Below, one piece after another: positions 11,338 through 54,524 of a DNA stretch of 64,000 nucleotides. Below the pieces are notes generated by a model. The model worked only from the letters and a program-made list of their open reading frames with translations. It was not told the DNA's origin and ran no database searches. Position numbers and translations under genes: made by a program. The DNA is taken from contig PFOM01000036.1 of the NCBI GenBank assembly GCA_002792535.1, forward strand, positions 11,936-75,935. Direction: 5' to 3'. The stretch's first letter is position 1. Each line of letters begins with the position of its first letter. The DNA comes from Candidatus Peregrinibacteria bacterium CG_4_10_14_0_2_um_filter_38_24 (lineage in GTDB: Bacteria; Patescibacteriota; Gracilibacteria; UBA1369; LOWO2-01-FULL-3).

Positions 11338-12915
11338 ATGGTCCGCACACGTTTCGCGCCATCACCGACAGGATACTTGCACGTTGGAGGGCTTCGCACA
11401 GCGCTTTACTGCTACTTGTTTGCAAAGAAAAATAAAGGCAATTTTTTGCTAAGGATTGAAGACACAGACCAAGAAAGATTCGTCGAAGGTGCAGTCGAAA
11501 ATTTGATAAAAACACTTTCGTGGATCAGACTTGATCACGATGAAGGGCCATTACTCGATGGCTCAGAAAAGGGAGAATTCGGCCCATATACTCAATCCAA
11601 AAGAACAGAAATTTACAAGAAACATGCAGACGAACTTATCGAAAAAGGTCATGCATACAGATGCTTTTGCACAAAAGAACGTCTCGAAGAAATGCATAAT
11701 GCACAAGAAAAAAACAAGCTTCCACCGATGTATGACAGAACATGCGCAAAACTTCCACAATCGAAAATCGAAGAAAAACTCGCATCAAACACTCCTTTTG
11801 TCATAAGACAAAAAATGCCTTATGAACTAATAAAATTCAAAGATCTTGTTCGCGGAAACGTACAATTCGACGGAAAAATAATCGACGACCAAGTCCTAAT
11901 AAAATCAGACGGCTTCCCGACATATCACCTCGCAAATGTAGTCGATGATCATTCCATGCAAATCACACACGTCATAAGAGGAGAAGAATGGCTTCCCTCA
12001 ACGCCAAAACATATCGCACTATACAAAGCATTCGGATGGGAACATCCCGAATTTGCACACCTTCCTCTTCTGTTAAACTCGGACAAAAGCAAACTTTCAA
12101 AGCGCCAAGGTGACGTTTCTGTCGAAAGCTACATCGAAAAAGGATATTTAAAAGAAGCGATAATAAATTTTGCAGCATTTTTAGGCTGGAATCCGGGAAG
12201 CGGAGAAGAAAAAGAAATTTTCACTTTGGAAGAACTCGAAGAAGTTTTTTCAATCGAACATATCCACAAAGCCGGCGCAATTTTTAATATAGAAAAACTA
12301 GACTGGTTCAACTGGAGATGGCAAAAAGAAATTTTCAATAAAAAGATTTTTCCTCTCGCAAAAGAAATAGACGAAAAAGTTGAAATCGATTTATCTCGCA
12401 AGGACCAGCCAAAATTTGCATTCACTTCTTCAGACAAAGAAGAAAAATTCATTGAAGAAAAAGGAAAAATATTGCTCGAAATATGTAAAAAATATTTAGA
12501 CAAAAAATATTTGTCAGACAAAAATATTTCAAAAATGCTTGTAACTGTTGAAGAAAAAATTCTACGCGACGCAAAAGAAGTTTCATCACAAATAGATTTT
12601 TATTTTACGCTACCAAACTATTCAAAGGAATTATTGACGAATGAAAAAATGGGAGTAGACTTTTCTTGGGCAAAGAAATCGATTGAAGAAGCACAAAAAA
12701 ATCTCGAAAAATTAGACAACTGGAATATTCCTGAAATAAAAGATGTTCTTACAAAAATAGTTGAAAGATTAGAATGCAAAAACGGACAGGTTTTTTGGCC
12801 TCTACGTGCCGCGTTAAGCGGACTTGACTTCTCTCCTGGAGTATTCGAAATAATGTATACACTCGGGAAAGAAAAATCATTACAAAGAATAAAAAAAGCA
12901 TTAGAAAAACTATAA
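11338..12915 (+). CDS. gltX: Glutamyl-tRNA synthetase
   Basis: Class I aaRS motifs RFAPSPTGYLHVGG (HIGH-type) and KLSKRQG (KMSKS-type), plus THVIRGEEW. Confidence 0.95.
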   Translation: MVRTRFAPSPTGYLHVGGLRTALYCYLFAKKNKGNFLLRIEDTDQERFVEGAVENLIKTLSWIRLDHDEGPLLDGSEKGEFGPYTQSKRTEIYKKHADELIEKGHAYRCFCTKERLEEMHNAQEKNKLPPMYDRTCAKLPQSKIEEKLASNTPFVIRQKMPYELIKFKDLVRGNVQFDGKIIDDQVLIKSDGFPTYHLANVVDDHSMQITHVIRGEEWLPSTPKHIALYKAFGWEHPEFAHLPLLLNSDKSKLSKRQGDVSVESYIEKGYLKEAIINFAAFLGWNPGSGEEKEIFTLEELEEVFSIEHIHKAGAIFNIEKLDWFNWRWQKEIFNKKIFPLAKEIDEKVEIDLSRKDQPKFAFTSSDKEEKFIEEKGKILLEICKKYLDKKYLSDKNISKMLVTVEEKILRDAKEVSSQIDFYFTLPNYSKELLTNEKMGVDFSWAKKSIEEAQKNLEKLDNWNIPEIKDVLTKIVERLECKNGQVFWPLRAALSGLDFSPGVFEIMYTLGKEKSLQRIKKALEKL

Positions 12916-12917
12916 AA

Positions 12918-13223
12918 ATGAACACAAACGAAATAAAATCTACCGTAAAACAACTCACAGAAACCTGTGAATGTTTGAGCTGTAAGACAAAATACAAAGA
13001 AAATAAAATTAACGTAATCGCAACAACAAAAAAAGAAGGACTCTTCGAAATGCACTGTGACAAATGCCATTCAACATCTTTAGTCACCGTAATGATCAAC
13101 AAAATAACACAGCTGGAAGGGCAGAGACAACACTCTAAAATAGAAAGTATTTCAAAAAATGATGTCCTTGATATGAAAAATTTCCTACAAAACTTTGATG
13201 GAAACTTCAAAAAAATCCTTTGA
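12918..13223 (+). CDS. Small putative zinc-ribbon protein, hypothetical
   Basis: Starts 2 nt after the gltX stop. Has two Cys pairs (CECLSC and CDKCH). No family recognised. Confidence 0.4.
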   Translation: MNTNEIKSTVKQLTETCECLSCKTKYKENKINVIATTKKEGLFEMHCDKCHSTSLVTVMINKITQLEGQRQHSKIESISKNDVLDMKNFLQNFDGNFKKIL

Positions 13224-13920
13224 TACTACAGGTTTTCTCAAATGCCAGTTTCACACACACGCAGAAGGAGATTTATTGGACCATATTTCTCATACACCGA
13301 AAGAACTCATAGATAAAGCCAAAAAACTAAGGTATGACGTTCTCTCAATCACCTCTCATAGAACAGTAATTTTCACAAAAGAGTTAGAATCATATGCAAA
13401 GAAAAAAGGAATTTTATTAATTCCGGGAATAGAATTTGAAATAAATGGCAAACATATTTTAGGAATAAATATCGACAAAAAAATCAAAAAAATAAAAACA
13501 TTTGAAAACCTAAAAAAATACAAATCTACACATAAAAATTGTTTAATAATTGCTCCACATCCATTTTTCCCCGGCAAAGTAACACTCAAAAAAAACCTTC
13601 AGTCCAACATCGAACTCTTTGATGCAATCGAATATTCTTTTTGCTATACCTCTACAAAAAATTACAACAAAAAAGCGGAATCAATGGCTAAAAAACATAA
13701 ATTACCAATGATTGCCACAGCAGATTGTCACGATTTAGAAAATCTAGATATTTCGTATAGCCTTATTAAAAGCCAAAAAACAACAAACCAAATAATTGAA
13801 AAAATAAAAAAATCTTCTTTTTCAAACAAAAAAATAAAACTCATATCGCAACCGATATCATATTTTAAAATTGCAAAATTAATTGCAAAACAAGAAATAA
13901 AAAATTTCTTTAAAAAATAA
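13195..13920 (+). CDS. PHP-domain metal-dependent phosphoesterase
   Basis: N-terminal FHTHAEGD motif typical of PHP domains, with later His/Asp motifs (APHPF, TADCHD). Overlaps the upstream ORF by 29 nt. Confidence 0.7.
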   Translation: MMETSKKSFDTTGFLKCQFHTHAEGDLLDHISHTPKELIDKAKKLRYDVLSITSHRTVIFTKELESYAKKKGILLIPGIEFEINGKHILGINIDKKIKKIKTFENLKKYKSTHKNCLIIAPHPFFPGKVTLKKNLQSNIELFDAIEYSFCYTSTKNYNKKAESMAKKHKLPMIATADCHDLENLDISYSLIKSQKTTNQIIEKIKKSSFSNKKIKLISQPISYFKIAKLIAKQEIKNFFKK

Positions 13921-13958
13921 ATATCTGTTATAATAAAAGTTGAAATTACCTCAAACCT

Positions 13959-14504
13959 ATGGACGAAATAAACGTTTACAATATTCCTGCATTTCAAAGG
14001 AAAAGAAGTTTAGCCGCAAAAGGCAGAAAAAAAACTACTTTACCGAAAAAACGAAAAACCGCATCACGTTCAGTAAAAAAACCAACAACCCGTCGCAGTA
14101 AAATCTTAAGGCCTGTAGAAACAAACTACAACTCTCCATCTTTTATTGAACAAGATTTAATACCGGAAATTTACGAAAGAGAACCACTTCCTTCACAAGA
14201 ACTTTTTGAAGAATTCGAAGAAAAAACAATAAAAAAATCTTCTTCGGATTTCAGAGAATTAAAAATATGCGGAATTTGCGAAGGATATTTCGACAAAATC
14301 GATGTAGCGATTATCAAGGTTACAAGCCCAATTCGAAAAGGAGATCAACTTATTTTCGAAAAAGAAGGAGGCCTTTTCGAACAAGTAATCAATTCAATCC
14401 AAATCGACAGAAAAGATGTATCAATAGCAAAATCAGGAAGTGATATCGGAGTAAAAGTATTTATAGCTCCAAAAGTTGGAACCCATGTCTATAAAGAATT
14501 ATGA
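13959..14504 (+). CDS. Hypothetical protein: basic N-terminus with an FtsZ C-terminal-peptide-like motif, plus a C-terminal EF-Tu-domain-2-like small beta-barrel
   Basis: N-terminus MDEINVYNIPAFQRKRSLAAKGRKK. The C-terminal ~85 aa (GYFDKIDVAIIKVTSPIRKGDQLIFEK...IQIDRKDVSIAKSGSDIGVKV) resemble the short proteins usually annotated as translation elongation factor-like. Confidence 0.55.
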   Translation: MDEINVYNIPAFQRKRSLAAKGRKKTTLPKKRKTASRSVKKPTTRRSKILRPVETNYNSPSFIEQDLIPEIYEREPLPSQELFEEFEEKTIKKSSSDFRELKICGICEGYFDKIDVAIIKVTSPIRKGDQLIFEKEGGLFEQVINSIQIDRKDVSIAKSGSDIGVKVFIAPKVGTHVYKEL

Positions 14505-48886: not shown

Positions 48887-50899
48887 ATGTCAAAAATAAT
48901 AGGTATCGACTTGGGAACAACAAATTCATGCGTTTCCGTAATGGAAGGAGGTGAAGCGATTGTAATCCCAAATTCCGAAGGTGGACGCACGACTCCATCC
49001 GTTGTAGCAATCAAAGACGGCGAAAGGCGCGTGGGAATTGCCGCAAAAAACCAAGCGGTCACAAATCCGGACAACACAATCTACTCAGCAAAACGTTTTA
49101 TCGGTCGCCAATATGACGAATCAATGACAGACATAAAAAGAGTTTCATATAAAACCGCGAAAGGAAAAGACGGTGAAGTGGAAATAATATTGGAAGGAAA
49201 ACAAAAACGCCCTGCCGAAATTTCCGCAATGGTCCTACAAAAATTAAAAGCGGACGCAGAAGCTTATCTCGGATATGAAGTAAAAGAAGCCGTCATCACC
49301 GTTCCTGCATACTTCAACGATTCACAAAGACAGGCCACAAAAGACGCAGGAAAAATCGCAGGACTTGATGTAAAAAGAATCATAAACGAACCAACCGCCG
49401 CCGCACTTGCATATGGAGTTGATAAAAAAGGAGGCGAGAAAAAAGTTGCAGTTTACGACTTTGGTGGAGGAACTTTCGACGTCTCTATTTTGGAGCTTGG
49501 AGAAGGCGTTTTTCAAGTAAAATCCACAAACGGAAACACACAATTGGGAGGTGACGATTTGGACGAAAGAGTAACAAAATGGCTAATAGATGAGTACAAA
49601 AAACAAAACGGTGCAGACATCTCGAAAGATAAATTGGCTATGCAAAGAATCAAAGAAGCCGCAGAAAAGGCAAAAATCGAATTATCATCTTTGCACGAAA
49701 CCACGATTTCGCTTCCATATATTACTGTCGACAAAGACGGTCCAAAAAATTTCGAAGCAAAATTGACCAGAACAAAACTCGAAGATTTAGTCGCAGACTT
49801 AATTGCACTCACTGAAGAACCTTGCAAACAAGCCATGAAAGACGCGAAGATTTTCGAAAGCGATATTGACGAAGTTTTGCTTGTTGGAGGAATGACACGT
49901 ATGCCCGCTATTCAAGCAAAAGTAAAAGAAATTTTCGGAAAAGAACCTTCGAGAGGATCAAATCCGGACGAAGTTGTCGCGCTCGGCGCAGGAATTCAAG
50001 GAGGAATTTTGCAAGGAGACTCTAACGTAAAAGATATTTTATTGGTCGACGTCACTCCCCTTTCACTTGGAATCGAAACACTTGGCGGAGTAAATACAAT
50101 TTTGATTGAAAAAAATTCCGCAATCCCTACATCAAAATCACAAGTTTTCTCAACTGCGGCCGACAATCAAACATCTGTCGAAATCAATGTTGTTCAAGGT
50201 GAACGCCCAATGGCATTGGACAACAAATCACTTGGAAAATTCGTATTGGACGGAATACCACCTTCCCCACGCGGAATGCCACAAATCGAGGTTTCATTCG
50301 ACATCGATTCAAACGGAATTTTGAATGTAAAAGCCGCGGACAAAGCCACAAATAAAGAACAACACATCACTATTGCCGGAAGCTCAAACATGAGCAAAGA
50401 AGAAGTCGAACAACGCAGACAGGAAGCTGAAAAATACGCCGAAGAAGACAAAAAGAAAAAGGAAATGATTGAACTGAAAAACCAAGCCGAAAGCTTGATC
50501 CTTCAATCGGAAAAAGCAATCAAAGACGCTGGCGACAAAGTCTCTGACGAACTCACAAAACCAATCAAGGAAAAAATCGAAACCCTTACAAAAGTGTTAG
50601 GAAACAAAGACGCCACATTCGAAGAAATCAAAACACCTTACGAAGACTTGAGCCAAGAAATCCAAAAAATCGGTGCCGAACTATACAAAACCGCCCAAGC
50701 CTCCGCACAACCTGCAGGCGCAGAAGGAAGCGAACCTAGCAGCGATGCTAGCGGAGCGGACAGTGAAGAGGGTTCCCCAAACGAAGCCGACGACGACGTC
50801 AAAGTCTACAAAAAAGGCGACAAAAAGAAAAGCAAAAAAGGCGATGATGATGTAGTAGAGGCGGAGGTTGTGGATGAGAAAAAGGAGAAGGAGAATTAA
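48887..50899 (+). CDS. dnaK: Molecular chaperone DnaK (Hsp70)
   Basis: [33 protein letters not shown], substrate-binding domain. Extended acidic/lysine-rich C-terminal tail. Confidence 0.98.
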
Positions 50900-50934
50900 A
50901 ATGGATACAAAATTACTTCTTAATTTCAAATAAA

Positions 50935-51135
50935 ATGCAAACTTTCTTCAAACCAGCTTCTGAAAAAAATCCAAAAACCGAGAAATGGACTCCAGTATAT
51001 ACACGAACAATTGAAGATGGTCCTACTAGCAATATGCAAACGGATAGTTTGAACAAAGAATTCAACACTCAAGAAGAAGCAGATCAATATTGCATAGGAT
51101 ATTGCCTACAACAAGGCTACACACAAATAGATTAA
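50935..51135 (+). CDS. Small hypothetical protein (66 aa)
   Basis: ATG-started ORF at the start of the AT-rich islet. No family recognised. Confidence 0.3.
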   Translation: MQTFFKPASEKNPKTEKWTPVYTRTIEDGPTSNMQTDSLNKEFNTQEEADQYCIGYCLQQGYTQID

Positions 51136-51154
51136 AATAATTAATAACAACTAT

Positions 51155-51337
51155 ATGGATCTAGAAAAATTCTTTGCATTATCCTTCTTCATAACATTGC
51201 CACTCGCATTCCTAGAAACAACAAGTCTAGTTAGATCTCCATTCGGCCAAGAAAGCTTTAGCCTAATAGCCTTCTGGTTCTTCATTAGTTACATAATTAC
51301 AAAGTTCATAGTTTGGATAAAAAACAGAAAAAAATAA
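51155..51337 (+). CDS. Small hypothetical two-TM membrane protein (60 aa)
   Basis: Hydrophobic segments FFALSFFITLPLAFL and FSLIAFWFFISYIITKFIVWI with a basic C-terminus. Confidence 0.3.
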   Translation: MDLEKFFALSFFITLPLAFLETTSLVRSPFGQESFSLIAFWFFISYIITKFIVWIKNRKK

Positions 51338-51396
51338 TTTTAACACTAGCCGGTTTCCGATCCAAGTAAAATAATTTTATAATTAACAACATATCT

Positions 51397-51555
51397 ATGG
51401 AAATACTTATAAGTCTTGCCTTAATTATTTTAATTGGTATATACATCGAATTACGGAGAAGTAGAAAAATGCTAAAATATATCGAGGTTAGATTGTATGA
51501 TATATACAAATATGTAAGTTCACTCAAAGATGTTGATCCTGATATATATTCATAA
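51397..51555 (+). CDS. Small hypothetical single-TM protein (52 aa), below the ORF-track cutoff
   Basis: Hand translation: MEILISLALIILIGIYIELRRSRKMLKYIEVRLYDIYKYVSSLKDVDPDIYS. It has an N-terminal TM helix followed by a charged tail. Confidence 0.25.
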   Translation: MEILISLALIILIGIYIELRRSRKMLKYIEVRLYDIYKYVSSLKDVDPDIYS

Positions 51556-51611
51556 ACAAAATTATATTATTATTTAGCTCGCTCATCCATATTTCTAACA
51601 CTAGAACCAAC

Positions 51612-52157
51612 ATGGAAGCTGATTATTCTAAAATAAAACTACATTCACTTTTCGATCCAATTAAAAAAATATTTGAATTTTTTATTCTCGGAACGATCTT
51701 CATAGGACAAAAAGACTTTCAAGCATTAATACTAGAACAAAATAAAGAACTAAGGTCTTTGATAGAAAAATACAACAAAGAAGTAAAACTTAGAGTAGAA
51801 GGAACCCGCGTAAAATCTAATACAAAAATGTACTACACTAATATAAGCCGATTAATGGCCATAGCAATATTTGATATTTTGCAATGCTCGAAATACCATA
51901 ATGCTGTCAAAAACAGTACTGTTTTTAAATTTGCAAAACACATACGCAATGGAGCAGCTCATGACAATACATTTGACTTAGCCCCTCCAATAAAAAATCC
52001 AATTACATGGCAAAAATTTACGATCACTCAAAGCTTGAATAAAACACCTGTTTTCCCAGATTTTATTGGTGCACCTACATTAATCTTTTTAATGAAGGAT
52101 ATTTCAGAAATGATCGAAAAGCATGAAGAAGAGAAAAATAGGCATCACAGCATATAA
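51612..52157 (+). CDS. HEPN-like protein with an Rx4H motif (candidate RNase), otherwise hypothetical
   Basis: A 181-aa mostly helical-looking protein. FAKHIRNGAAHDNTF contains R112-x4-H117 (nt 51945-51962) in the h-h-R-N-x-x-x-H context typical of HEPN domains. Confidence 0.45.
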   Translation: MEADYSKIKLHSLFDPIKKIFEFFILGTIFIGQKDFQALILEQNKELRSLIEKYNKEVKLRVEGTRVKSNTKMYYTNISRLMAIAIFDILQCSKYHNAVKNSTVFKFAKHIRNGAAHDNTFDLAPPIKNPITWQKFTITQSLNKTPVFPDFIGAPTLIFLMKDISEMIEKHEEEKNRHHSI

Positions 52158-52215
52158 TAGCTACCTAGCCAGTTCACGAGCTAAGTAAAATTATCCTTTA
52201 TAATTAATCTAAAGA

Positions 52216-52746
52216 ATGAAATCCCACTGGCTCTATTCCAAAACCAGCGACAACAAAGCAAGATTTTTACTTGGAGAAAAAGGTAACAAAACTTTAATAT
52301 GCATCGGCATAAATCCAAGCACCGCAGAACCTGATAATTTAGATCGAACTTTAACTGTCGTAAAAAGATTTTCTCGTGATTTGAAGTACAATTCATGGCT
52401 TATGTTAAACGTATATCCACAAAGGGCAACAAATCCAAATAATTTAGATTTAGAAATTAATAGCGAGTACCATTTTGAAAATTTGAAACAAATTGAAACA
52501 TTTTTAAAAACAGGAAAATTTGATATTTGGGCAGCATGGGGCACAAACATCAGTAAAAGAAAATATTTGTTTTCATGTTTAAAAGATATAGTTTCAATAA
52601 CGAAAAAACATTCAATTAACTGGCATACCATCGGCAAAAAAAGCAAAGAAGGTCATCCACATCATCCATTATATTTAGATAAAAAGTTGGGACTTGATTC
52701 ATTTGATATCAAGGAATACCTACAAAAAAACATAAAAAAATCATAA
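52216..52746 (+). CDS. DUF1643 domain protein
   Basis: Family pattern LICIGINPSTAEPDNLDRTLTVVKRFSRDLKYNSWLMLNVYPQRATNPNNL, and C-terminal GHPHHPLYL. Confidence 0.75.
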   Translation: MKSHWLYSKTSDNKARFLLGEKGNKTLICIGINPSTAEPDNLDRTLTVVKRFSRDLKYNSWLMLNVYPQRATNPNNLDLEINSEYHFENLKQIETFLKTGKFDIWAAWGTNISKRKYLFSCLKDIVSITKKHSINWHTIGKKSKEGHPHHPLYLDKKLGLDSFDIKEYLQKNIKKS

Positions 52747-52767
52747 ACTTTTTTTATAAAAATTCTA

Positions 52768-52796
52768 TTGACGGTGAGTGTACGCTCACCTATAAT
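52768..52796 (+). promoter_or_regulatory. Consensus-like dinD promoter (TTGACG-N17-TATAAT) whose spacer is an 18-bp palindrome (candidate repressor operator)
   Basis: Hexamers at 52768-52773 and 52791-52796. GGTGAGTGTACGCTCACC (52773-52790) is palindromic at 16 of 18 positions. Confidence 0.6.
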
Positions 52797-52822
52797 GCGG
52801 ACGAAATCAATCAACCGCACAC

Positions 52823-53662
52823 ATGGAAAAGAAAATCATACAAACACTAACGGAAAATTTTGAATCATTCGCTCATAAAACAGAACAGGGAGTTGAATTT
52901 TGGTTTGCAAGAGATTTGCAAAAACTTTTAGGATATGACAAATGGGATAATTTTTCACAAGTTATTGAAAAAGCTAAAACTGCCTGCGAAAAATCCACGC
53001 ATAAAATTTCGGACCATTTTGCCGACGCCGGGAAAAAGGTTTCTATCGGTTCTGGAGCCACAAAAGAGATTTTCGACATAATGCTGACTCGTTACGCCTG
53101 CTACCTCATCGCGCAAAACGGAGATCCACGAAAAGAACAAATAGCCTTCGCGCAAAACTACTTTGCAGTTCAAACAAGAAAATTTGAAATAATCGAAGAA
53201 AGAATAAAAGACTGGGAAAGACTTTCCGCAAGACAAAAACTCTCACTCTCAGAAAAAGAATTTTCAGAACTCATTTTCGAAAAAACAGGAAATGAAAAAA
53301 ATTTCGCAGTGATAAGAAGCAAAGGCGATAACGCTTTATTTGGCGGACATGATACTAATGCAATGAAGAAAAAACTTGGCATTCCAGAAAACAGACCACT
53401 CGCAGATTTTCTCCCAACCATCACGATAAAAGCAAAAGATTTTGCAACCGAAATCACCGTTTTCAATCTAAAAGACAAAGATCTAAAAGATGAAAAACAA
53501 ATTTCTAGCGAACACATTAAAAATAATCAAAGTGTAAGAAGTGTCCTCCTTGAAAGAGGCATAAAACCCGAAGAACTTCCGCCAGAAACAGACCTAAAGA
53601 AGCTCGAAAGAAAATTAAAAAACGACGACAAAAAAACTTTAAAAAATTCACAGAATTTGTAA
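52823..53662 (+). CDS. dinD: DNA damage-inducible protein D
   Basis: Collinear with E. coli DinD as I recall it (GVEFWFARDLQKLLGYDKWDNFSQVIEKAKTACEKS, SDHFADAGKKVSIGSGATKEIFDIMLTRYACYLIAQNGDPRKEQIAFAQNYFAVQTRK). Similar length (279 aa). Confidence 0.88.
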   Translation: MEKKIIQTLTENFESFAHKTEQGVEFWFARDLQKLLGYDKWDNFSQVIEKAKTACEKSTHKISDHFADAGKKVSIGSGATKEIFDIMLTRYACYLIAQNGDPRKEQIAFAQNYFAVQTRKFEIIEERIKDWERLSARQKLSLSEKEFSELIFEKTGNEKNFAVIRSKGDNALFGGHDTNAMKKKLGIPENRPLADFLPTITIKAKDFATEITVFNLKDKDLKDEKQISSEHIKNNQSVRSVLLERGIKPEELPPETDLKKLERKLKNDDKKTLKNSQNL

Positions 53663-53874
53663 ACAAAAAATTTAGTTACCATCTTTTGCGAGATATAAAC
53701 TAACATACAAGATAGTTTGCATCTCAAGTTTAAAAAATTGGAAAAATACGAAGTGACAAGAAAAAGCCTTCCGCCAATCTATGGTGTATAAACCACGGCC
53801 AAAAGCAAATTCCACAAACATAATAGCCAAATCATTCACAAAAGGCAAGCTTTTTAAACAAAAAAATCACAAAT

Positions 53875-53903
53875 TTGCAACGCCACAAATTCCGGCATAT
53901 TAT
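53875..53903 (+). promoter_or_regulatory. Candidate promoter (TTGCAA-N17-TATTAT) immediately upstream of the 84-aa membrane protein gene
   Basis: Hexamers at 53875-53880 and 53898-53903. The ATG at 53912 would leave a very short or absent leader. Confidence 0.3.
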
Positions 53904-53911
53904 AATCCCAC

Positions 53912-54166
53912 ATGCCAACACTCACTTCCTTACAAAAAGAAATCGACACAATCAAAACCCGCAACAAAAAAGTCGAGCTCGACAAAGCGTGGGAGACTTC
54001 ATGGACACGCAAATTAGTTATTCTGATCCTGACATACATTGTCATCGTAATATTTTTCTTCGCAGCAAATCTCGAAAATCCATTCCTAAACGCCATCGTC
54101 CCCTCAATCGGATTTTTCCTCTCCACTCTCACAATCACAATCTTCAAAAACTGGTGGATAAAATAA
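53912..54166 (+). CDS. Small two-TM membrane protein (KAWETSW motif family), hypothetical
   Basis: The N-terminal helical segment ending in VELDKAWETSWTRK, followed by two TM helices, resembles a conserved small-protein family I recall from other bacteria. Preferred over the two overlapping ORFs (53781.., 53875..), which have low-complexity basic translations. Confidence 0.5.
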   Translation: MPTLTSLQKEIDTIKTRNKKVELDKAWETSWTRKLVILILTYIVIVIFFFAANLENPFLNAIVPSIGFFLSTLTITIFKNWWIK

Positions 54167-54206
54167 TATAGACATCCATATAAACCTCACAAAATAAAAA
54201 ATTTAC

Positions 54207-54524
54207 ATGACCAAATTTTACCTTCTCGTAGCCGCAATAAACACACTCGACCTCATTGCCATAATATTCGCGAAACTTTGGAACATACATAAAAATCCGA
54301 TTTTCCTCGCGCTCACAATCCTCGGTTTCGGAAGCGCAGGATTCTTTTTTGCACTCTCACTAAAGTACGAAGGCATGGCCATCACAAACATTCTCTGGAT
54401 CGCCATTTCAGTAATTTTAGTCACAATCGTCGGCTATTTTTTCTTTAAAGAAGCAATTTCAGTCTTACAATTCATAGGAATCGCATTAATCATGATCGGA
54501 CTCGTCCTCATAAATTTAAAATAA
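54207..54524 (+). CDS. SMR-fold small membrane transporter (EmrE/ArnE-like, four TM)
   Basis: 105 aa with four TM helices. The C-terminal half aligns by eye with EmrE (WIAISVILVTIVGYFFFKEAISVLQFIGIALIMIGLVLINL). TM1 has Asp (NTLDLIA) rather than the canonical Glu14. Confidence 0.6.
   Translation: MTKFYLLVAAINTLDLIAIIFAKLWNIHKNPIFLALTILGFGSAGFFFALSLKYEGMAITNILWIAISVILVTIVGYFFFKEAISVLQFIGIALIMIGLVLINLK

Follow-up and report, generated by a model that had tools for sequence, protein, structure and literature searches.

Directly downstream of dnaK, in a 64-kb stretch of contig PFOM01000036.1 from Candidatus Peregrinibacteria bacterium CG_4_10_14_0_2_um_filter_38_24 (hereafter the window), lies an AT-rich islet (50900-52760) that holds three tiny open reading frames (ORFs; o66, o60 and o52), a gene for a 181-amino-acid HEPN-like protein and a DUF1643 gene, and is followed by dinD. 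Our analysis leans towards reading the interval 50899-54207 as a recombination or insertion hotspot with two slots around the DUF1643 gene and a solo HEPN-like, defence-type RNase, and not as a single cassette. The locus is a small composite, defence-island-like sink beside dnaK. All five islet ORFs were found on the plus strand as the original prediction had described them; that prediction regarded them as horizontally acquired cargo, possibly one defence or toxin cassette.

The evidence for two slots comes from the loci of relatives (Ca. Peribacteria), which were retrieved with a GrpE probe (GrpE identity 94% for L016, 74% for L017 and L019, and 71% for L018). The order hrcA-grpE-dnaK is kept in all of the relatives' loci fetched, and the genes downstream of the interval are kept where the contig reaches them (SMR-family transporter gene, pgi and LOG in L019; the transporter gene only in L017). 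Nucleotide similarity to the relatives ends exactly at the dnaK stop codon (50899) and resumes at the transporter gene, at about 54195-54206. The sole exception within the non-conserved stretch is the DUF1643 gene, which follows dnaK in L016 (88% amino-acid and 89% nucleotide identity) and L019 (86% at both levels) and is as conserved there as the adjoining housekeeping genes. No counterpart of o66, o60, o52, the HEPN-like gene or dinD was found at the locus in L016, L017 or L019, and in L017 DUF1643 is also absent after dnaK. The equivalent slots hold unrelated ORFs, and a Pfam search of these slot-filling genes gave mostly no match, save DUF2000 and GNAT. Since the relatives keep DUF1643 but not its islet neighbours, we distinguish two variable slots, with DUF1643 apparently an older resident between them and not a member of a cassette. 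The comparison bears out the accessory nature claimed for the tiny ORFs, the HEPN-like gene and dinD, and shows that the five-gene set is not shared. It also displaces the right edge of the islet, earlier placed near 52760: the variable stretch continues through dinD and o84, an 84-amino-acid membrane ORF likewise lacking a counterpart in L016, L017 and L019, to about 54.2 kb.

The other side of dnaK is variable as well. Between grpE and dnaK the relatives carry a minus-strand ORF of about 1250 amino acids and/or pairs of RelE/ParE-like and AbrB-like genes (L016 5770-9561, L018 10707-15049, L019 9550-13308, L017 10619-13027, L021 901-1461), and the corresponding gap of the window holds a 116-amino-acid ORF only. 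Because of these RelE/AbrB-type pairs and the 1250-amino-acid ORF, we consider the flanks of hrcA-grpE-dnaK a cargo sink. The operon is apparently both flanked and interrupted by variable cargo.

Synteny also bears on the view that the five ORFs, with or without dinD, were acquired horizontally as one defence or toxin cassette, its HEPN effector cooperating with the small membrane proteins and DUF1643. The genes do share a strand, tight spacing and AT-richness, and DUF1643 elsewhere likewise lies near HsdR, Fic and GIY-YIG genes. In addition, o60, o52 and DUF1643 have in common the arrangement ATAATTAA-N8-10-ATG, which in front of ORFs of at least 45 amino acids occurs at only these three places in the 64 kb (ATAATTAA at 51137, 51379 and 52200; spacing N10 for o60) and may represent a -10 box common to the three, in which case their leaders would be very short. 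However, L016 and L019 have DUF1643 at the site but none of the other genes, no homologs of o66 or o52 were found, PADLOC recognised no multi-gene system, and in none of 72 loci of the HEPN-like family do homologs of DUF1643, dinD, o66, o60 or o52 adjoin the HEPN gene. That no HEPN-family locus pairs the HEPN gene with the other islet genes argues against the five being one system. The single travelling cassette is largely refuted by synteny, and we give it hardly any credence.

The 181-amino-acid protein carries the Rx4H motif recognised in the original prediction, as R112-N-G-A-A-H117. The block K-H-I-R-N-G-A-A-H-x-N-x-F is common to 35 close homologs, all of them metagenomic and, where a source name is given, from Patescibacteria. 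A 33-sequence set (alignment A1) was gathered by word-seeded HMMER searches, and 68 further loci (26-84% identity) came from a pattern-seeded metagenome scan with two patterns. Residues R112, G114, A116, H117 and N119 are invariant in 33/33 sequences of A1 and in 79/79 family sequences, an invariance that is partly circular for the 68 loci because RNGAAH[DNE]N was one of the search patterns. N113 is nearly invariant in A1 and kept in 77 of the 79 sequences of the larger alignment; Q37, N55, S93, W133 and I138 are likewise conserved (77-78 of 79). A relative on a Rhodococcus plasmid, found independently by tblastn, keeps RNGLAH-x-N-x-F. A scan of IMG/VR returned no member of the family.

According to the AlphaFold2 model (predicted local distance difference test score, pLDDT, 93.9), the protein is all-alpha with two short beta-hairpins and a long C-terminal helix (154-179). 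Helix 103-116 has R112 in its final turn, and the loop begins with H117. In HEPN proteins, Rx4-6H lies where core helix-3 ends and the loop to helix-4 begins, and a polar residue follows the arginine (PMC3710099). Both the motif, with its polar residue, and its predicted position correspond to this description.

Members of the family often lie beside or inside type I, III and IIG restriction-modification (R-M) operons and near other defence genes. ORFs were called at the 72 loci, and neighbouring ORFs were grouped into clusters, of which the recurrent ones were annotated. A recognised R-M gene was found within two ORFs in 23 of 51 metagenomic contexts (dereplicated at 90% identity), a count that is a lower bound with incomplete neighbour annotation because many contigs are 1-3 kb long. 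The gene sits between the subunits of type III systems in the order Mod-HEPN-Res (L053, L072/73, L083, L089, L090) and of a type I system as HsdS-HEPN-HsdR (L041); L067/69/97 also show the type III order, with extra small ORFs and a NYN gene between Mod and Res. It precedes HsdR at L033, where the homolog is 69% identical to the window protein, and adjoins a type III Mod-like methylase gene at L034 (84% identical). Type IIG/ISP methylase-nucleases are the neighbours at L028/35, L064, L066, L070, L078 and L081/82, and an EcoRI methylase with GmrSD-HNH at L087/88. Other neighbours are an OLD-family ATPase, Fic, Schlafen/AlbA_2, NYN, RelA/SpoT, RhuM, Hypoth_Ymh, SIR2 and serine recombinases.

R-M linkage is known for many HEPN clades, with PrrC-EcoprrI as the model (PMC3710099; bioRxiv 10.1101/2024.01.29.577857), and the logic of 'guilt by embedding' has been supported experimentally for other genes (bioRxiv 10.1101/2024.01.29.577857). 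The RNGAAH proteins, with their strong embedding in such operons, make a reasonable candidate for this approach. Solo homologs between housekeeping genes, as in the window, were found at L026, L029 and L046, and because they recur, such copies may be maintained. At L038 (5556-6272), L039 and L042 the HEPN-family gene is followed by Hypoth_Ymh (PF09509) and then by an 838-amino-acid protein without a Pfam match. At L052 (3-1683), in another lineage, a dnaK gene (58% identical) immediately precedes a distant homolog (32% identity), and a Schlafen/AlbA_2 gene comes after the homolog; this is either a second independent case of placement behind dnaK or an old linkage. A leader of the form CCAT...TTTTCTAACA stands about 10-20 nucleotides (nt) before the ATG in the window (51585-51611) and at L031, L033, L035 and L026; as HEPN genes of 63-83% identity share it, this 5' element appears to travel with the gene.

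Several results weigh against reading the protein as a defence-type HEPN RNase, in addition to the partial circularity of the motif count and the incomplete annotation of neighbours mentioned above. Foldseek returned no HEPN entry from the PDB (best E 3.5) and nothing significant from BFVD (best E 1.2), although it can miss divergent helical bundles. Sequence searches of the PDB with the single protein and with the family profile found no relative. The match to the Pfam family PF18736 (HEPN pEK499_p136) reached 18.5 bits (E 0.0018), below the gathering cut-off of 26.6; PF18736 matches over the motif region in 10 of the 33 A1 members are all sub-threshold, and none was obtained in ten distant homologs. 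A hidden Markov model (HMM) built from the 79 members misses the pEK499_p136 protein (score 0.9, with 45 of 2000 shuffles as good), and hhalign gave a probability of 0.3% for the same comparison. With the cut-off not reached and the direct comparison negative, membership in PF18736 was rejected. The protein also went unrecognised by PADLOC, NCBIfam and PHROGs, and the family is without a passing match in any of these three databases or in Pfam. One distant homolog has a faint AbiU2 match (E 0.05). Around the window copy, no R-M gene was detected among ten Pfam-scanned ORFs or in the annotation of 43-62 kb, the part at 17-43 kb being unscanned; the immediate neighbours are o52 and DUF1643, not R-M subunits. 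The HEPN identity first proposed is reasonable on motif and context, with a fold that Foldseek did not confirm and a Pfam match below threshold. Because motif and placement agree, the curated family does not and the fold is unconfirmed, we use the label "HEPN-like" only.

On the strength of the motif, its predicted placement and the genomic context, we consider the protein most likely to be a latent endoribonuclease that acts as a second-line effector of abortive infection. Slot A (50900-52215) holds the genes of three small proteins specific to the lineage, of which two are membrane proteins, and of the solo HEPN-like protein. Slot B (52747-54206) contains dinD, which was apparently acquired horizontally and has a promoter of its own and a putative palindromic operator, plus a small membrane ORF. 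The HEPN-like protein would be a metal-independent endoribonuclease acting through R112 and H117, and would be kept inactive until infection or stress. Once activated, it may cut cellular or phage RNA and so stop translation, serving as a second line of abortive infection like other R-M-linked HEPN nucleases. Following the PrrC model, the R-M-embedded homologs may be latent second-line RNases released when restriction fails; the window copy, having no R-M partner, could be a stand-alone abortive-infection (Abi)-type toxin or a leftover orphan.

The orphan possibility leads to an account without any defence role, in which the locus is fast-evolving lineage filler comprising a HEPN-like orphan of a lost R-M system and membrane factors specific to the candidate phyla radiation (CPR), or decaying ORFs. 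The missing R-M partner and the unrelated ORFans in the same slots of the relatives would suit it, and composition says little, as the vertically inherited DUF1643 also has low G+C. A nonsense change in DUF1643 on one population contig points the same way: on the L015 contig a single A>T at the equivalent of 52366 introduces a stop, so that the gene is called as 50 + 114 amino acids, which points to a variant of a dispensable gene or else to an error in the assembly. Yet the HEPN ORF is unbroken and retains all residues that are invariant in the family, and it is identical in all 15 loci that reach it (some 11 different contigs, drawn from several samples and sources). Its solo homologs recur and may be maintained, and the small genes tile the DNA far beyond chance (see below). 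We regard the filler account as unlikely, but not as negligible. The islet locus is also identical in the metagenome-assembled genome GCA_002788735.1 at NCBI, and contigs of the same population from other samples are 100% identical over the islet save one single-nucleotide polymorphism, so they are uninformative on coding constraint in the tiny ORFs.

The features of the interval are collected in Table 1.

Table 1. Features of the variable interval downstream of dnaK (window coordinates)
Feature	Position	Strand	Description
o66	50935-51135	+	66 aa, soluble ORFan
o60	51155-51337	+	60 aa, two hydrophobic segments
Direct-repeat copy A	51346-51399	+	Between the o60 stop and the o52 start codon
o52	51397-51555	+	52-aa ORFan, N-terminal hydrophobic helix, charged tail
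HEPN-like gene	51612-52157	+	181 aa, RNGAAH at residues 112-117
Direct-repeat copy B	52165-52218	+	Between the HEPN-like stop and the DUF1643 start codon
DUF1643 gene	52216-52746	+	176 aa, apparent resident gene, kept at this site in three species
dinD promoter with palindrome	52768-52796	+	TTGACG-17-TATAAT, palindrome 52773-52790
dinD	52823-53662	+	DNA damage-inducible protein D, Bro-N N-terminal domain
o84	53912-54166	+	84 aa, two hydrophobic segments, last variable gene
SMR-family transporter gene	54207-54524		Conserved right boundary of the variable stretch

Within slot A, two direct repeats (45 of 65 aligned positions identical) start 8 nt after the stop codons of o60 (copy A) and of the HEPN-like gene (copy B). 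Both copies contain TATAATTAA, and their 30-nt core is found nowhere else in the window (0 expected). In L032, the stop codon of a 75%-identical HEPN gene is also followed by a similar element. Homology to the relatives' DUF1643 begins only at 52211-52227, the start codon, so that a recombination junction lies there. The repeats fit either an insertion of o52 and the HEPN-like gene or a duplicated promoter/terminator segment.

One could accordingly picture o52 and the HEPN-like gene as a two-gene module, a membrane partner or antitoxin with an RNase toxin, inserted between o60 and DUF1643. The repeats bracket exactly these two genes, the L032 element and the junction at the DUF1643 start codon, where the relatives' homology begins, agree with such an insertion, and a different small ORF with two transmembrane segments lies directly upstream of the HEPN homolog in L081/L082. 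On the other hand, o52 is an ORFan, HEPN homologs have no conserved small upstream ORF, the repeats show no significant secondary structure (z 0.03 and -0.47) and could be duplicated promoter/terminator sequence, and no recombinase is nearby. We find this module quite unlikely. A type II toxin-antitoxin pair made of o52 and the HEPN-like gene was rejected, o52 being without a homolog and no small upstream ORF recurring beside the HEPN homologs in the 72 loci. An integron-type cassette array was likewise dismissed: there are only two repeats, they show no significant folding, and no recombinase is annotated among the neighbours at 43-62 kb. No tRNA, tmRNA or Rfam match turned up at 46-58 kb or in the relatives' loci, and hence no sign of a tRNA-linked integration site.

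Together, the three tiny ATG ORFs account for 76% of 50900-51611, all on one strand, an extent reached by 0 of 2000 dinucleotide shuffles (mean 3.6%); the opposite strand has no such ORF. They are thus very unlikely to be chance ORFs. Hydropathy analysis agreed with the membrane predictions made earlier: o60 has two hydrophobic segments, o52 has one and o66 has none. The sole match to o66 among 5.8 billion proteins was itself, apart from a weak, sub-threshold similarity to NCBIfam CV_2116 (22 bits, cut-off 58), and it has no counterpart at the relatives' loci. HMMER likewise returned only o52 itself among 1.84 billion representatives. For o60, a comparison restricted to the loci fetched found no match in the relatives' or the HEPN-family loci. 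The only homologs of o84 found are at L081 (4181-4444) and L082 (3-272), 57-59% identical, where a HEPN-family gene and then an Eco57I-like methylase gene come immediately after them.

In slot B, the identification of dinD held: its product scores 369.6 bits against the NCBIfam DinD equivalog NF008573 (cut-off 242) over residues 1-278 of 279, and Pfam assigns its N-terminal domain to Bro-N. PADLOC matches it at full length to the candidate PDC-S13 (PDLC04919; E 1.5e-117) and recognised nothing else in the islet. The protein is 68% identical to the plasmid-borne DinD of Bernardetia (Bacteroidota) and, on that account, looks horizontally acquired. Its promoter is near-consensus, with 11 of 12 positions matching, in keeping with the strong promoter described earlier. 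The promoter spacer contains a perfect palindrome, GGTGAG-TGTACG-CTCACC (6-6-6), which is unique in the window and is a predicted operator or repressor site. To our knowledge it resembles no known LexA box; with no second copy in the window, the palindrome was rejected as a regulon box.

The DUF1643 annotation was likewise sound (Pfam PF07799, 105.3 bits against a cut-off of 22.5, E 3.3e-30, profile positions 1-134 of 134). The further description of the protein as DNA-associated found no support in anything we obtained, and the literature calls its role unknown (PMC9226611). The family has more than 7857 homologs. On a Gracilibacteria contig the gene follows HsdR, DUF2130 and NT5C, in Magasanikbacteria it follows Fic, and in Leptospiraceae it lies by GIY-YIG and RtcB; these sampled contexts are islands. 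The nearest homolog outside Peribacteria, from a Leptospiraceae metagenome-assembled genome, has 71% identity, which is unusually high across phyla. The gene is also found in the ccr complexes of the staphylococcal cassette chromosome (SCC) and as insertion-sequence cargo (PMC10581047, PMC10821479, PMC13231603).

The AlphaFold2 model of the DUF1643 protein (pLDDT 93.2) is a three-layer alpha/beta fold, for which Foldseek found nothing significant in the PDB (best E 1.2e-3, template-modelling score about 0.3 to unrelated alpha/beta folds); sequence and profile searches of the PDB gave no relative. Two invariant blocks, GINPS (31-35) and HPHHPL (147-152), each follow a strand in the model. They may resemble motifs A (G-x-N-P-G/S type, after strand 1) and B (H-P-S-P type, after the last strand) of the uracil-DNA glycosylase superfamily; Foldseek did not support this, its top 50 PDB matches containing no such enzyme.

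Base composition was one of the original grounds for calling the islet foreign. The islet has a G+C content of 30.1%, the window one of 37.7%; just 0.6% of windows of the same size fall as low. The hand counts of 22-23% for two low stretches were correct (22.5% at 51361-51480 and 21.7% at 52441-52500), but the contrast with 45-52% in dnaK and dinD came from a selective sample: the gene-wide means are 42.5% and 35.7%, respectively. Compared with 44 reference genes, G+C z-scores are -4.3 for o52 (25.8% G+C), -2.65 for DUF1643, -2.6 for the HEPN-like gene and -0.85 for dinD. Codon usage did not set the islet apart: an index resembling the codon adaptation index was unremarkable for all genes tested, and it is uninformative here because the preferred codons of the genome are themselves AT-rich. 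The only other part of the window with comparable AT-richness, at about 12-14 kb (12050-14500), contains two ORFs without a Pfam match (101 and 181 amino acids), the 3' end region of a Glu/Gln-tRNA synthetase gene and a gene with a PHP domain (13195-13920, 27.8% G+C). Since this region is equally AT-rich, low G+C in the genome is not limited to accessory DNA. DUF1643 is equally AT-rich in L016 and L019 (29% G+C), so that low G+C is no mark of recent arrival; with the conserved DUF1643 as AT-rich as the variable genes, it cannot by itself date acquisition.

CPR bacteria have tiny genomes and their resistance to phages is little understood; at this locus, defence-type and orphan genes have collected even beside a core chaperone operon. 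A bolder combination of claims would make the RNGAAH proteins an undescribed defence family with a novel fold that acts as an R-M-embedded second-line RNase in CPR and other bacteria, the hrcA-grpE-dnaK flanks a dedicated landing site in Peribacteria, and HEPN, DUF1643 and DinD an R-M-independent trio. That all of this holds jointly we consider very unlikely.

Among known families, pEK499_p136-like proteins (PF18736) come closest to the HEPN-like protein. They too are stand-alone proteins of about 170-180 amino acids with R-N-x-x-A-H (RNSVAH there, RNGAAH here), theirs is the sole Pfam family that matches the 181-amino-acid protein at all, and "some [are] in operon with R-M genes" (PMC3710099). 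In contrast to them, the window protein scores below the cut-off, gives no HMM or hhalign signal and has two beta-hairpin inserts in its model. At most, the RNGAAH proteins form a separate family of the HEPN superfamily.

PrrC, the anticodon nuclease of the EcoprrI type Ic R-M system, shares with the homologs the position of a HEPN-type gene between R-M subunits (L041 and the Mod-HEPN-Res loci). PrrC, however, has an N-terminal ABC-type nucleoside triphosphatase (NTPase), whereas proteins of the RNGAAH family consist of one small domain, and no R-M gene adjoins the window copy. The window copy was rejected as a PrrC-type nuclease, the single-domain protein having no ABC/Rad50-like NTPase match and its neighbours being o52 and DUF1643. 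AbiD/F Abi_2, AbiU2, AbiV, ApeA and HEC-08 are, similarly, small HEPN effectors acting alone or nearly so, and in HEC-08 mutation of the Rx4-6H histidine abolishes defence. The window protein has no significant profile match to any of these single-gene Abi proteins, and it is not in PADLOC.

The dinD gene resembles PDC-S13 as a full-length equivalog with a Bro-N N-terminal domain, but is a solo gene in a CPR genome here. PDC entries derive from genes that lie within BREX, DISARM and type I R-M systems and are candidates for defence, not validated systems. The DUF1643 genes of SCC ccr complexes belong to the same Pfam family and travel with SAUGI, DUF960, type I R-M and ISL3 cargo, in contrast to the copy described here, which is a stable element of its locus kept across three species. 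HEPN RNases inside R-M systems have been known since 2013, and what is gained is a new family and a new host group, with no new principle. The islet is a modest further example of known defence-linked cargo, arguably with a new family and not a new system.

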